8,034 nt of DNA from a virus. Taxonomy: Duplodnaviria; Heunggongvirae; Uroviricota; Caudoviricetes. The notes beneath the pieces were generated by a model. It was not told the origin of the DNA. It worked only from the letters and a program-made list of their open reading frames with translations, and did not search any database. Every line of letters begins with the position of its first letter. The first letter of the stretch is position 1. The position numbers were made by a program, and so were the translations under genes. The stretch is taken from IMG/VR virus record IMGVR_UViG_2695420602_000004. The stretch is one strand, 5' to 3'. Shown here piece by piece: positions 3,414 through 7,639 of this stretch.

Positions 3414-3815
3414 GTGGCAAAAGTTTTTACACAAGAAGAGCGGGAAAAAATTAAAGGGCAGGTGGTGGAACTCGTACGCCAGAGTGGGCGCGAGACATTA
3501 CGACAACTGGAAGCTAAAACTGGGGCAACAAGATATCTGATGAGCGTTCTGGCCAGAGAGCTGGTTGCCAGTGGCGATGTATACAGCTCTGGTTACGGGT
3601 TATTCCCGTCTGAACAGGCGCGTAAGGACTGGCAAAACGCCCGCAAAAAACTCTCGAGGGCAAAGGTGAAGAAAACAGCTGTGATTGATCCGGACCTTAT
3701 CTGGTCGTTACCTGATGGAGAAATACGTCGCTACGACAGTCGCCTAAACATAATCTGTCGCGAGTGCCGGATGAGTGAAGTTATGCAGCGCATACTGGCA
3801 TTTTATCAGGGATAA
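3414..3815 (+). CDS. ren: Ren-like protein (133 aa), GTG start
   Basis: AGGAGG (3404..3409) 4 nt before GTG 3414; C-terminus ...ICRECRMSEVMQRILAFYQG and an internal ...KTGATRYLMSVLARELVASG resemble remembered lambda Ren (...FKECRQSAAMKRVLAVYG; ...LTGATVTSINQAA...); sits right after the replication gene, as ren does in lambda. Confidence 0.55.
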   Translation: MAKVFTQEEREKIKGQVVELVRQSGRETLRQLEAKTGATRYLMSVLARELVASGDVYSSGYGLFPSEQARKDWQNARKKLSRAKVKKTAVIDPDLIWSLPDGEIRRYDSRLNIICRECRMSEVMQRILAFYQG

Positions 3816-4004: not shown

Positions 4005-4937
4005 ATGGAAATCAACAAAGAAAAATTGTCAGGTTTACTTAACTACTTCGAGTCTCGCAAGAAATACGCTGCAACTCGAATATCTAGTTTATCCAGTCAG
4101 AATGAGATCTGTTTCGCTTTGTCAGGATTGACGTTTCGAAACGGGCCTTATGTTTTCCAAGACGTAGGTGAATTAAGGGAGGTACTTCATCCACCAGGAG
4201 AGATAGAGTTAGCCAAAGCGCTTAAGAGCAAGTCGCTACTCAGCGCTGTTGCTCGTCATATGCCCGCAGTTACGCATGAGCTTGCGTTGCAAAGCAGTGA
4301 GTCGAAATTTTCTCAATCAGACCTGACTATCGGATGGTGGATCATATCCGCGATCCGATGCCGCACACTCACCGATATACTTGTTCCTGCAGTAGCAAGT
4401 GCATCTTGGGATGTATTCCCTGCTCTTCAAGCCAACTCGTGTGAAGTCCAACTTCTTGAGGACGTGCCGGCAGTTCGGAGAATAAGCCCAAGTGTAGAGA
4501 TATCAGTAGAGTCTCTCGACTGGGTTCAAGAGAATCTCAAGCGTTGGATAGATCTGCTAGAGCAACCAGCATTCCGGCTCGCTATTGATTCTTTAACTAC
4601 TCACAACCAACACGCGAATTTGAGAATGGCTGCTGCTGCTTTATGGGCAGGATTTGAAGCGCTCTTTGGAATCAATTCAGAGCTTCGTTTTCGTCTTGCT
4701 CTTATGGCCGCAGCATATCTTGAGGAGCGAGGGCCTGATCGTTTAGCCACCTATCGTAGGGTTAAGAAGCTGTATGACTACCGTTCGAAGGCAGTGCATG
4801 GGGGAGCTACGTCAGATAACTTTTTAGTTGAGCATATAATTGAGGTACGAGTGCTTTTATCCCGATTAGTGTGTCGCATGACAGAGATCGGAAAAATGCC
4901 CACAACCGACGATTACGAGGAACGGCTTCTAACTTAA
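4005..4937 (+). CDS. 310-aa cargo protein with C-terminal R-x4-H motif (R260-S-K-A-V-H265); candidate HEPN-family RNase / abortive-infection-type defence protein
   Basis: Single long ORF with only a weak SD; 189-bp structured intergenic region upstream and 11-bp-stem hairpin downstream; motif YRSKAVHGG (nt 4782..4799) in what reads as an alpha-helical C-terminal region; the flanking genes are conserved lambdoid genes. Domain call is inference from the motif only. Confidence 0.7.
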   Translation: MEINKEKLSGLLNYFESRKKYAATRISSLSSQNEICFALSGLTFRNGPYVFQDVGELREVLHPPGEIELAKALKSKSLLSAVARHMPAVTHELALQSSESKFSQSDLTIGWWIISAIRCRTLTDILVPAVASASWDVFPALQANSCEVQLLEDVPAVRRISPSVEISVESLDWVQENLKRWIDLLEQPAFRLAIDSLTTHNQHANLRMAAAALWAGFEALFGINSELRFRLALMAAAYLEERGPDRLATYRRVKKLYDYRSKAVHGGATSDNFLVEHIIEVRVLLSRLVCRMTEIGKMPTTDDYEERLLT

Positions 4938-5029: not shown

Positions 5030-5318
5030 TCAACCTCCAAGATTAGGTACAATGAAGTGGTCAACAAAAACTGGCCACCGCAAGAAAACACGTCTATGTC
5101 AGTATTTATTCCGAACTTCCGTTGTTCGCTCAAAGCGGACTAAAAGGTTAGCTTGTGTCGGACTTTGCGTATTAAAAGAAGTGCAGGTGGTGACTAGTGG
5201 TTGAGCCCCATTTCCACAGAAAAAATCAGAGAAACTATACCCAATAGTTGTATTGAATCACTGACGAGACAGCCTCATATTCATCAGGACTGGTGTACGT
5301 CCAATACAGGAGGTTGTG

Positions 5319-5408
5319 GTGCTGGTTCTCAAATGTGCGCTGGCTATTACGGCTGTAATGGCGATTTATTGTCTTGCTATTGTTCTTATGGATCGCCTTT
5401 CTGACTGA
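5319..5408 (+). CDS. Candidate 29-aa hydrophobic membrane peptide (MLVLKCALAITAVMAIYCLAIVLMDRLSD), GTG start
   Basis: AGGAGG (5308..5313) 5 nt upstream of GTG 5319; product is one predicted transmembrane helix with a charged tail, the profile of small type I toxins; not in the supplied ORF track. Could be chance. Confidence 0.3.
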   Translation: MLVLKCALAITAVMAIYCLAIVLMDRLSD

Positions 5409-5416
5409 TTTCATAT

Positions 5417-5444
5417 TGGCGAGGTAACGGTAGTTAAGTAGAAT
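5417..5444 (+). promoter_or_regulatory. Candidate hok mRNA promoter (TTGGCG-16-TAGAAT)
   Basis: -35-like 5417..5422 and -10-like 5439..5444 place a start near 5451, the 5' end of the segment complementary to the 3' end of the hok transcript (5825..5837). Confidence 0.3.
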
Positions 5445-5619
5445 GGCTGCGGGTGCTTGAGGCTATCTGCCTCGGGCATGAACACCAACGGCAGATAGAG
5501 AAAAGCCCCAGTTAACATTACGCGTCCTGCAAGACGCTTAACATTAATCTGAGGCCAATTTCATGCTAGACACATGTAGGTTAGCCTCTTACGTGCCGAA
5601 AGGCAAGGAGAAGCAGGCT

Positions 5620-5775
5620 ATGAAGCAGCAAAAGGCGATGTTAATCGCCCTGATCGTCATCTGTTTAACCGTCATAGTGACGGCACTGGTAACGAGGAAA
5701 GACCTCTGCGAGGTACGAATCCGAACCGGCCAGACGGAGGTCGCTGTCTTCACAGCTTACGAACCTGAGGAGTAA
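5620..5775 (+). CDS. hokD: Hok-family type I toxin (51 aa, MKQQKAMLIALIVICLTVIVTALVTRKDLCEVRIRTGQTEVAVFTAYEPEE), HokD/RelF-like
   Basis: Sequence recognised as Hok family (TM helix plus conserved LCE.R....EVA.F.AYE); an in-frame upstream ATG at 5563 gives a 70-codon extended ORF; SD-like AAGGAG at 5604..5609. Confidence 0.85.
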   Translation: MKQQKAMLIALIVICLTVIVTALVTRKDLCEVRIRTGQTEVAVFTAYEPEE

Positions 5776-5845
5776 GAGACCCGGCGAGGGAGAAATCCCT
5801 CGCCACCTCTGATGTGGCAGGCATCCTCAACGCACCCGCACTTAA

Positions 5846-5870
5846 CCCGCTTCGGCGGGTTTTTGTTTTT
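5846..5870 (+). terminator. Rho-independent terminator at the 3' end of the hok transcript (CCCGC-TTCG-GCGGG + T-run)
   Basis: GC-rich 5-bp stem with tetraloop at 5846..5859, followed by TTTTTGTTTTT at 5860..5870. Confidence 0.65.
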
Positions 5871-5883
5871 ATTTTCAACGCGT

Positions 5884-5913
5884 TTGAAGTTCTGGACGGT
5901 GCCGGAATAGAAT
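5884..5913 (+). promoter_or_regulatory. Candidate promoter for rem-like gene (TTGAAG-18-TAGAAT)
   Basis: Hexamers at 5884..5889 and 5908..5913 downstream of the hok terminator; weak, sequence-only. Confidence 0.25.
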
Positions 5914-5991
5914 CAAAAATACTTAAGTAGCGCGCAGGGATAAGAGGGATGGTCCCTTAAAGGGGAGAGCTAATTATCCGGAAGGATTCTG

Positions 5992-6243
5992 ATGATGAAC
6001 ATCGAAGAACTGCGTAAAATTTTTTGTGAAGATGGCCTCTATGCTGTGTGCGTTGAAAATGGAAATCTTGTTAGTCATTACCGCATTATGTGTTTGCGAA
6101 AGAATGGGGCTGCGTTAATTAATTTTGTGGATGGTCGAGTGACAGACGGATTTATCTTGCGCGAAGGTGAGTTTGTCACTTCATTACAGGCACTGAAAGA
6201 GATCGGAATAAAAGCAGGCTTTTCAGCTTTTGCAGAAGAATAA
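5992..6243 (+). CDS. rem: Rem-like small prophage protein (83 aa)
   Basis: GAAGGA SD (5981..5986) 5 nt before ATG 5992; 83 aa and position immediately next to hok match remembered Qin rem. Confidence 0.65.
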   Translation: MMNIEELRKIFCEDGLYAVCVENGNLVSHYRIMCLRKNGAALINFVDGRVTDGFILREGEFVTSLQALKEIGIKAGFSAFAEE

Positions 6244-6309
6244 ACTCATCTACAATCTTGCGCGGGGCTGAACTCCCGCTGAGTAACACCGTGCCACCGG
6301 AGAAAACCG

Positions 6310-6588
6310 ATGGCACGCAACGTAAAATATTACAATTCTGATAATTCGCCCGTTCTTGCCTGCACGCACGAGCGGTATTCTCACGCATTCAAGTCTGAAT
6401 GGTTCCAACACCCTCCATGCACTGAAGAGCAGGCTGAATGGATAATTCAGTGTTACCGCAGGCGCGGATACGAGGTTAAGAAAGCCCTTAGTCTCGACTA
6501 CCGTCACTGGATAATCTCAGTCAGATTGCCTTACTCCGAACGCCCACCGCGTCCGTCCCGTACATTCCAGCAACGCATCTGGAGGTAA
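6310..6588 (+). CDS. Hypothetical protein (92 aa), translationally coupled to downstream DUF968 gene
   Basis: GGAG (6299..6302) 7 nt before ATG 6310; stop TAA 6586..6588 lies inside the downstream gene's RBS (GGAGG 6581..6585). Confidence 0.6.
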   Translation: MARNVKYYNSDNSPVLACTHERYSHAFKSEWFQHPPCTEEQAEWIIQCYRRRGYEVKKALSLDYRHWIISVRLPYSERPPRPSRTFQQRIWR

Positions 6589-6589
6589 C

Positions 6590-7639
6590 GTGCGGGTATT
6601 ACTTCGACCTGTTCTGGTACCGGAACTCGGGCTGGTGGTCGTTAAGCCGGGCCGTGAATCCATGCCGGTATTCCACAATACCCGGGTACTGGTGGAGCCG
6701 GAACCGAAAAGCATGCGTAATCTGCCGTCCGGGGTCGTTCCTGCCGTTCGCCAGCCGCTGGTGGAAGACAAAACATTGCTGCCGTTTTTCAGTAACGCAC
6801 GGGTAATTCGTGCTGCTGGTGGTGCTGGTGCATTGTCTGACTGGCTGTTGCGCCATATTAAATCCTGCCAGTGGCCACACGGCGATTATCATCACAGCGA
6901 AACCGTTATTCACCGATATGGTACCGGCGCAATGGTGTTGTGCTGGCACTGCGACAACCAGCTGCGTGACCAGACATCCGAATCACTCGAGCAACTTGCT
7001 CATCAAAACCTGTCAGCATGGATGATTGACGTCATCGGTCACGCAATAAGCGGTACGCAGGAGCGTGAATTATCTCTGGCTGAATTATCCTGGTGGGCGC
7101 TCCGCAATCAGCTGGCGGACGCGCTACCGGAAGCGGTATTACGTCGCTCGCTGGGATTACCAGCGGAAAAAATCTGCTCGGTGTACCGCGAAAGCGACAT
7201 CGTACCGGGAGAGCAGACCGCCACCAGCATATTGAAACAGCGCACAAAAAATCTTGCACCGTTGCCTCACGCCCACCAGCAACAAAACCCATCACAGGAA
7301 AAGACGGTGGTAAGCATCACCGTTGATCCAGAGTCTCCGGAATCTTTCATGAAGCTGCCTAAACGTCACCGTTGGGTTAAGGAGAAATACACACGCTGGG
7401 TTAAGACACAGCCGTGTGCTTGCTGCGGGATGCCAGCCGACGATCCGCATCATCTGATTGGTCACGGGCAGGGCGGAATGGGAACCAAAGCACATGATCT
7501 CTTTGTGTTGCCTTTGTGCAGAAAGCATCACGACGAGTTGCATACGGATACCGTGGCATTTGAAGAGAAGTATGGCTCCCAACTGGAGCTGATTTTTCGA
7601 TTTATCGATCGCGCGCTGGCAATTGGTGTGCTGGCCTAA
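6590..7639 (+). CDS. ydfU: DUF968-type prophage protein with C-terminal HNH-like Cys/His cluster (349 aa), YdfU-like; GTG start
   Basis: GGAGG 4 nt before GTG 6590; C-terminus [43 protein letters not shown] has CxxC...HH...C..HH..H spacing typical of HNH-type zinc-finger nucleases; size and position before Q match remembered Qin YdfU. Confidence 0.72.

Follow-up and report, generated by a model that had tools for sequence, protein, structure and literature searches.

A very probably intact hok/mok/sok type I toxin-antitoxin locus (hokD/hokW type) in a Qin-like lambdoid Escherichia coli prophage

The stretch of DNA that we analyzed (8,034 nucleotides, referred to here as the window) carries, as part of a Qin-like lambdoid prophage, a small toxin gene that is surrounded by a set of regulatory RNA elements; the replication module flanks this locus on one side and the rem-ydfU-Q genes on the other. 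Upstream of it lie genes for cI/cro-like regulators, a YdaT-family gene, replication genes, a DUF977 gene and a gene for a 310-aa protein annotated as possessing a HEPN domain; downstream follow rem, ydfU (DUF968) and the gene for the Q antiterminator. The features on which our analysis is based are as follows.

4005-4937: neighbouring gene, annotated as encoding a HEPN-domain protein of 310 aa
-35 TTGGCG at 5416-5421, 17-nt spacer, -10 TAGAAT at 5439-5444, plus strand: candidate hok promoter, found by consensus scan (9 of 12 matches)
5451-5870, plus strand: predicted full-length hok mRNA of about 420 nt, its putative ends derived from the Rfam start, the terminator and the fold
5451-5462, plus strand: tac (translational activator element) at the mRNA 5' end, GGGTGCTTGAGG, folding partner of fbi or ucb
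5463-5471 (CTATCTGCC) and 5490-5498, plus strand: arms of the 5' leader hairpin, from the fold
5503-5509, plus strand: ucb or anti-SD, AAGCCCC, bound in the folds to the mok SD when the RNA has its full length and to tac when it is truncated (cf. PMC9841398)
5551-5554, plus strand: mok SD, GAGG, invariant in 31 of 31 loci
5563-5775, plus strand: mok frame of 70 codons that contains hok in frame (list of open reading frames), with an ATG that lines up with the start annotated for K-12 mokC
5571 to about 5495, minus strand: predicted Sok antisense RNA of about 72-77 nt, from alignment to the K-12 Sok RNAs and hokW-sokW
5585-5588, plus strand: dcb, CCTC, which pairs with the mok SD once the RNA is open (folds)
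-35 TTGCCT at 5606-5601, 17-nt spacer, -10 TAACCT at 5583-5578, minus strand: candidate sok promoter, placed by homology
5620-5775, plus strand: hok toxin gene (HokD, 51 aa; HOK_GEF, PHROG 251, RefSeq hokD), with its SD AGGAG at 5606-5610
5783-5804, plus strand: 3'-UTR hairpin, a 9-bp stem in all folds
5825-5837, plus strand: fbi (fold-back inhibitory element), CCTCAACGCACCC, pairs with tac
5844-5870, plus strand: intrinsic terminator of the hok mRNA, a 7-bp GC-rich stem (5844-5861) with a TTCG loop followed by a T-run

The hok open reading frame was recognized by the Pfam profile HOK_GEF (PF01848) with 82.9 bits against a cutoff of 22, it falls into PHROG 251 ('MokW-like host killing'), and its coding sequence is identical to that of K-12 hokD; RefSeq assigns the name hokD to 100%-identical copies. 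In phage records, the locus is called MokW, HokD, gef or 'host killer', the mok frame itself carrying the name MokW. HokD was among the literature-characterized positive controls used in the toxicity assay of a survey of Hok proteins (bioRxiv 10.1101/2025.08.07.668861). At the RNA level, the sok/hok-leader model of Rfam (RF01794) matched positions 5451-5625 with 115.3 bits (gathering score of 59; E = 2e-26); this match spans the full model (1-157) and begins exactly at the predicted +1 position, 5451. The hok-type type I locus that the initial annotation had proposed is thus supported by both the protein and the RNA profile. In the Rfam scan of the locus, RF01794 was the sole family for such loci to score, with no separate hok model scoring. 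Matches to isrK, rsmX, P9 and other Rfam families over the 3' UTR and the terminator stayed far below the gathering scores, and we set them aside as chance or terminator similarity.

In our assessment, positions 5416-5870 very probably hold an intact hok/mok/sok type I toxin-antitoxin locus of the hokD (= hokW) type, whose mechanism we infer to follow the R1 paradigm. A module of this kind is already known, and the copy in this Qin-like lambdoid E. coli prophage is complete and ordinary. Its value as a discovery is small, this being a textbook module that has already been labelled hokD, MokW or hokW, and experiments on a near-identical locus have been published. RefSeq annotation is confined here to the coding sequence of hokD, to which our coordinates for mok, Sok, both promoters and the elements of the RNA switch add detail.

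The candidate hok promoter had initially been described as TTGGCG-16-TAGAAT starting at position 5417. Both hexamers are indeed present, but they are separated by 17 rather than 16 nucleotides and the -35 hexamer starts at 5416. The -10 hexamer is located 7 nt upstream of 5451, and alignments show it to be kept in hokW, the Rac hok, and K-12 hokC, hokB and hokE (TAGAAT, TATAAT, TAGGAT, TAAGAT). At the opposite end of the transcription unit, the terminator that had been placed at 5846-5870 consists of the stem at 5844-5861 and a T-run that extends to 5870. The start of the Rfam match at 5451 and the end of the terminator near 5870 agree with the transcript of about 420 nt that had been predicted. 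A hairpin in the leader had been noted as well: its right arm lies at 5490-5498 as given, while its left arm occupies 5463-5471 and not 5464-5472. The 70-codon frame starting with the ATG at 5563, suspected at the outset to be of the mok type, is in frame with hok and matches the annotated, likewise in-frame mokC of K-12.

Folding of the predicted mRNA (5451-5870) yielded a structure of -173.3 kcal/mol (z = -7.65 relative to 100 dinucleotide shuffles, none of which folded as well), and its minimum free energy (MFE) conformation recovers the closed tac/fbi state envisaged in the initial annotation. The molecule is closed end to end by 12 bp between tac and fbi that are interrupted by one bulged C (5831). 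Short complementarities do arise by chance in general, and both the pairing and the hairpins could be fortuitous features around a small toxin gene, with no regulated fold-back mRNA being made. To rank tac partners, we considered 16,034 windows of 17 nt from both strands of the 8-kb window. Besides tac's own complement, the fbi site was the best partner, with a duplex of -21.1 kcal/mol versus -16.5 for the next best and a mean of -6.3 (sd 2.7), i.e., about 5.6 sd from the mean; chance complementarity of tac and fbi was rejected on the basis of this ranking.

The model folds change with the position of the 3' end. In the full-length fold (5451-5870), tac is paired with fbi, and ucb (5503-5509) is paired with the GAGG of the mok SD (5551-5554). 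When the 3' end was set to 5820 or 5812, tac paired with ucb and GAGG with the CCTC at 5585-5588; when it was set to 5824, tac paired with the directly downstream segment 5470-5486, like a metastable tac hairpin. In the R1 system, the full-length mRNA is closed by tac/fbi with ucb sequestering the mok SD, trimming of the 3' end leads to the tac/ucb and mok SD/dcb pairings, and a tac-containing hairpin forms transiently during transcription (PMC9841398). In these thermodynamic calculations, the window sequence is predicted to adopt all three of the published R1 states.

For the comparative analysis, we scanned one genome per species with a single Hok protein and obtained 53 loci; an alignment of six Hok proteins had been tried as the search profile, but it contained no stretch that was conserved enough. 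Thirty full-length mRNAs (from Escherichia, Kluyvera, Pseudocitrobacter, Citrobacter, Pantoea and Photorhabdus) were aligned together with the partial K-12 hokB sequence. Folding of the individual duplexes showed that the tac/fbi helix, with about 11-14 bp and the bulge present or absent, is kept in all 30 loci with compensatory changes. Among the replacements are U:A to C:G at position 4 of tac and, at positions 11 and 12, G:C to A:U or G:U. The 12-bp, one-bulge complementarity between 5451-5462 and 5825-5837 that had been read as tac/fbi is thereby corroborated by both the MFE fold and its conservation. MAFFT shifted the 5' half of fbi by one column in the bulge-less Photorhabdus and Pantoea loci, and this causes spurious unpaired cells at tac positions 7-12, which the per-sequence duplex folding corrects. 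Across the 31 loci, tac is nearly invariant (entropy of 0.08), dcb is invariant (31/31), and the mok ATG is kept in 28-29.

When the full-length fold was projected onto the alignment, 83.9% of the cells were paired, compared to 37-44% with slid partners, a measure that is inflated relative to these controls since the structure comes from one member of the alignment, the window sequence itself. Pairs that change on both sides numbered 43 versus 21-30 with slid partners, and not one of 500 shuffles reached the observed values of pairing and covariation. Both local hairpins behaved similarly in the alignment of the full-length mRNAs: 95.9% of the cells are paired in the leader hairpin (5463-5498), where three of the nine pairs change on both sides, and 95.7% in the 3'-UTR hairpin (5783-5804), where three pairs do so. 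By analogy with R1 (PMC9841398), the latter hairpin is likely to shield the 3' end of the active mRNA that results from processing. With a helix that is kept by compensatory changes in 30 loci from several genera, a covariance-model match at E = 2e-26 and the outstanding rank of fbi among the partners of tac, we give practically no credence to a chance origin of these features.

The Sok RNA had been sought on the minus strand, with TTGCCT-17-TAACCT as the best promoter candidate, and several lines of evidence speak for this choice. The promoter has 7 of 12 consensus matches and is a poor fit to sigma-70; since its -10 hexamer matches only three of six positions, it is not listed by a consensus scan, and we placed it by homology instead. 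As annotated in K-12, the sokC, sokB and sokE RNAs align with their 5' ends to position 5571 and with their 3' ends to 5495/5496, so that the predicted Sok RNA would start 7 nt downstream of this promoter. In the 31 aligned loci, the +1 base of Sok is invariant, as are the A at position 2 (5582) and the T at position 6 (5578) of the -10 hexamer and the TTGCC of the -35 region. The -10 hexamer of hokW-sokW is identical to TAACCT, and judged from primers YO-421/422 it is this hexamer that was replaced in the published promoter-less mutant: the two primers replace bases equivalent to window positions 5577-5583, TAGGTTA, which contain the minus-strand TAACCT. A 77-nt Sok RNA is predicted to fold with -30.5 kcal/mol (z = -5.25) into a terminator-like architecture in which a 5' tail of 15 nt is followed by a long hairpin and UUUU, and it would span both the SD and the ATG of mok. 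Its hairpin is about 18-20 nt longer than those of K-12 sokC, sokB and sokE, owing to extra sequence inserted at its tip. The 17 nt at 5555-5571 encode the single-stranded 5' tail of Sok together with the first mok codons.

The closest relative studied by experiment is hokW-sokW of the Stx2 prophage Sp5 and 933W-type phages (Takada et al. 2021, PMC8621323), which like the window locus resides in a lambdoid prophage and is near-identical to it from the hok -10 hexamer to fbi; in the alignment with a 933W-type Stx2 phage, this near identity extends from 5435 to 5840. Common to both are tac, ucb, the mok SD and ATG, the -35 and -10 regions of sok, dcb, the hok SD and fbi, and the hokW-sokW oligonucleotides YO-351, YO-349, YO-597, YO-406 and YO-541 all fit the window without a mismatch. 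The two loci differ by five substitutions clustered in 5555-5571 (the segment for the 5' tail of Sok and the initial codons of mok), in the C-terminus of Hok (FTAYEPEE in the window versus FVDYESEK in HokW, as read from primer YO-560), in the sequence following fbi including the terminator, and in the prophage backbone, which is Qin-like in the window and of the Stx2 type for hokW. HokW is toxic, and sokW expressed from its own promoter neutralizes it, partly through RNase III and Hfq; mutation of the sokW -10 region releases the toxicity, and deletion of hokW-sokW halves phage release after mitomycin C treatment (PMC8621323). Transfer of this mechanism to the window copy by analogy appears well grounded, while still being an inference.

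The hok/mok/sok system of plasmid R1 (parB) shares its architecture with the window locus, namely the tac/fbi, ucb/mok-SD, tac/ucb and mok-SD/dcb helices, a hairpin that protects the 3' end and an antisense RNA encoded in cis across the mok start. Transcript lengths are similar as well, with about 420 nt predicted for the window and 398 nt for the R1 hok transcript. The R1 Hok protein is 44% identical to HokW, which in turn differs from the HokD of the window at the C-terminus only, and nucleotide matches of the window to plasmid hok loci are restricted to short leader stretches with 76-82% identity. As differences from R1, we list the mok frame of the window being in frame with hok and the location of the locus in a prophage rather than on a plasmid. 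In E. coli K-12, hokC/mokC/sokC (gef) encodes a Hok protein with 82% identity, and its mok frame is likewise in frame and shares its stop codon with hok. The K-12 hokC leader aligns throughout with that of the window, the ends of sokC mapping to 5571 and 5495. It differs in having IS186 just downstream, with the alignment ending before the fbi region, in its shorter Sok hairpin, and in its location at a different chromosomal site that is not prophage-borne.

K-12 hokD (relF), which is located in the cryptic prophage Qin, matches the window in 394 of 395 nt over 5606-6000, a region that includes the 3' UTR, fbi and the terminator; over 5606-7394 the identity to K-12 Qin is about 94%, and rem and ydfU are common to both as downstream neighbours. 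The homology, however, begins only at 5606 with the hok SD, 14 nt before the ATG. K-12 hokD is therefore devoid of the promoter, tac, ucb, the mok start, the sok gene and dcb, and relB-relE are found there instead. The statement in the initial annotation that the K-12 copy lacks its own leader proved correct, and it concurs with the report that K-12 hokD has been inactivated by a genomic rearrangement (PMC12214031). The K-12-type relE-hokD junction was detected in 1173 of 5426 complete E. coli genomes, as compared to 3928 of 5426 for the complete locus (5400-5880 at a coverage of at least 80%), and one Kluyvera genome possesses this junction at 90% identity. The leaderless K-12 hokD is thus a derived, minority form and not the typical one, and the complete locus is the majority state in E. 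coli and nothing unusual. Places matching 5400-5880 number two per E. coli genome in the median and nine at maximum, and several E. coli strains carry this 481-bp region in the chromosome at 100% identity. The locus is also present in 79 phage records, among them mEp460_ev081 and HannyBb at 99.6% identity; these two records were deposited as phage genomes.

The prophage surrounding the locus is partly degraded: an IS1 fragment occupies positions 1-393 of the window, and relatives possess IS1 and IS3 nearby. In such a setting, the locus could itself be a relic that is intact in sequence and functionally silent, having lost any killing or stabilizing activity, as in the case of the chromosomal hok loci that Pedersen and Gerdes tested. 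As cited in bioRxiv 10.1101/2025.08.07.668861, chromosomal hokA, hokB and hokC conferred no post-segregational killing and did not respond to rifampicin; since these loci failed in killing tests, an intact sequence is no guarantee of classical killing activity. Several findings nevertheless argue against a silent relic and make it improbable. All regulatory elements of the window locus are intact and constrained, as seen from the invariant positions in the mok SD, dcb, tac and the sok promoter and from the compensatory changes; the near-identical hokW-sokW is a working toxin-antitoxin system; and the locus recurs at 99.6% identity in the two deposited phage genomes. Furthermore, a truly decayed copy among the loci that we collected (L010) has kept an intact coding sequence next to a leader that is full of indels, and by comparison with it we rejected a reading of 5416-5870 as a decayed locus.

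For the intact locus that we favor, the order of events can be modelled on its homologues, from which the start sites of transcription, processing at the 3' end, the coupling of translation, decay by RNase III and toxicity would carry over. A hok mRNA of about 420 nt would start at 5451 and would be translationally inert in its full-length form, with tac and fbi paired and ucb sequestering the ribosome-binding site of mok. Slow trimming of the 3' end up to the hairpin at 5783-5804 would remove fbi, upon which tac would pair with ucb and the mok SD region would refold with dcb. Translation of mok, and of the in-frame hok coupled to it, would then yield the 51-aa membrane toxin. The unstable Sok RNA of about 75 nt (minus strand, 5571 to about 5495), presumably made constitutively, would pair with the processed mRNA across the mok start, and this duplex would block translation and be subject to RNase III decay. 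For R1, activation by 3' exonucleolytic processing, cleavage of the duplex by RNase III, an unstable Sok RNA and a stable mRNA are known (PMC9841398).

Among close relatives, the most variable part of the locus is the patch at 5555-5571, where the mean column entropy amounts to 0.93, compared to 0.0-0.6 for the other elements. In R1, the 5' tail of Sok seeds target recognition. It is possible, if rather doubtful, that this patch is under diversifying selection that would keep co-resident hok/sok copies orthogonal. If true, each Sok RNA would neutralize the hok mRNA of its own prophage only.

With respect to function, a post-segregational or defence module, as had been suggested initially, is plausible and unproven. 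The gene at 4005-4937 next to the locus is annotated as encoding a HEPN-domain protein, and HEPN domains are found in many defence systems. Anti-phage defence by abortive infection, as described for R1 hok/sok against T4, could be the main role instead of help with lysis or maintenance, and the introductions of two studies link hok/sok to phage defence (PMC8621323; bioRxiv 10.1101/2025.08.07.668861). PADLOC, on the other hand, gave no hit for Hok or the 310-aa neighbour; PADLOC, Pfam and NCBIfam likewise returned nothing for the 310-aa open reading frame or for those of 30 aa (5316-5408) and 67 aa (5201-5404). The survey of Hok proteins found hok to be enriched in prophages and not near defence systems (bioRxiv 10.1101/2025.08.07.668861), and the sole experiment on a near-identical locus points to earlier lysis and phage release upon induction (PMC8621323). 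We therefore regard defence as an unlikely main role. By analogy with the near-identical hokW-sokW, the function of the locus is most likely linked to the prophage that carries it; e.g., it may help lysis on induction or serve the retention of the element.

The prophage copy in the window is disrupted at its left end, since part of an IS1 transposase gene occupies the first 393 positions and the closest full-length relative, MY203L1, matches the window only from position 904 onward. The features that we recorded outside the hok toxin locus are as follows.

Features flanking the hok locus (window positions)
1-393, left end of the window: IS1 transposase gene fragment, 99% identical to the IS1 of strain SC516
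3414-3815, plus strand: intact DUF977 gene (Pfam, 94.5 bits)
4005-4937, plus strand: 310-aa ORF in the slot directly upstream of hok, a HEPN-domain protein according to RefSeq
5316-5408, plus strand: strongly hydrophobic 30-aa ORF (MVLVLKCALAITAVMAIYCLAIVLMDRLSD), preceded by AGGAGG
5884-5913, plus strand: second promoter-like site, TTGAAG-18-TAGAAT, located between the hok terminator, which it directly follows, and rem (5992-6243)

While the DUF977 gene is annotated as frameshifted in MY203L1, the genome closest to the window, its counterpart in the window is uninterrupted. The slot that follows it upstream of hok is variable: in the phage mEp460, whose record contains the same hok locus, another gene occupies this position on the opposite strand, and SC516 has an IS3 element there. 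The 310-aa ORF found there in the window matches phrog_28161, a family of unknown function, and searches against Pfam and PADLOC returned no match for it. The 30-aa ORF lies in the unannotated gap between this HEPN gene and the hok promoter; no match was found for it in Pfam, NCBIfam, PADLOC or PHROG, and it might encode a small membrane protein or have no significance at all. On the other side of the locus, the TTGAAG-18-TAGAAT site may serve as the rem promoter.

Within the hok coding region, the Tyr47 codon is part of a TACG motif (GCTTACGAA) at positions 5758-5761. The hokD mRNA is reported to undergo low-level (6%) A-to-I editing by TadA, which recodes Tyr47 to Cys (PMC12214031). Further downstream, positions 5784-5865 on the plus strand bear a weak, sub-threshold similarity to the Rfam family isrK (25.7 bits versus a gathering score of 50). 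isrK is a small RNA of Salmonella prophages. The similar stretch coincides with the hairpin of the hok 3'-UTR and the terminator, and the resemblance probably reflects merely a hairpin-terminator architecture in common.

Variability among hokD-like loci is highest in the stretch at 5555-5571, which codes for the 5' tail of the predicted antisense RNA Sok and for the first codons of mok. Its mean column entropy is 0.93, compared to 0.0-0.6 in the other elements, and five of the few differences between the window and hokW, the near-identical locus of Stx2 prophage Sp5 and 933W-type phages, fall into it.

The leaderless relB-relE-hokD arrangement of the K-12 type is not limited to K-12, as loci L032 and L011 of our one-genome-per-species scan with the Hok protein illustrate: 1173 of 5426 E. 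coli genomes contain it, and Kluyvera sp. CHPC 1.2972 (L032) has a version with 90% identity. A decayed hokD-type copy is exemplified by E. coli ECMA0423 (L010, 1947610-1949162), whose Hok coding region aligns free of indels. In the leader of this copy, however, the 5' element tac shows point changes, ucb has lost 1 nt, and the sok -35 region contains an insertion. Near-identical hok sequences were also encountered on contigs of 275-431 bp labelled Acinetobacter idrijaensis and Xanthomonas pisi (L022, L027) and in the 'Actinobacillus phage' record PP818812.1; these entries appear to stem from contamination with E. coli or from wrong labels and not to reflect a true host range.

The Rfam family RF01794, named 'sok antitoxin', matches positions 5451-5625 on the plus strand, the sense strand of the hok mRNA. 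The first of the 157 positions of this model corresponds to the predicted mRNA +1 and the last to the hok ATG. Since the model thus runs on the sense strand from transcript start to toxin start codon, RF01794 describes not the antisense RNA of about 60-75 nt but the hok leader, with the tac/ucb stem and the Sok target region. Any 'sok' annotated from RF01794 would therefore be too long and on the wrong strand.
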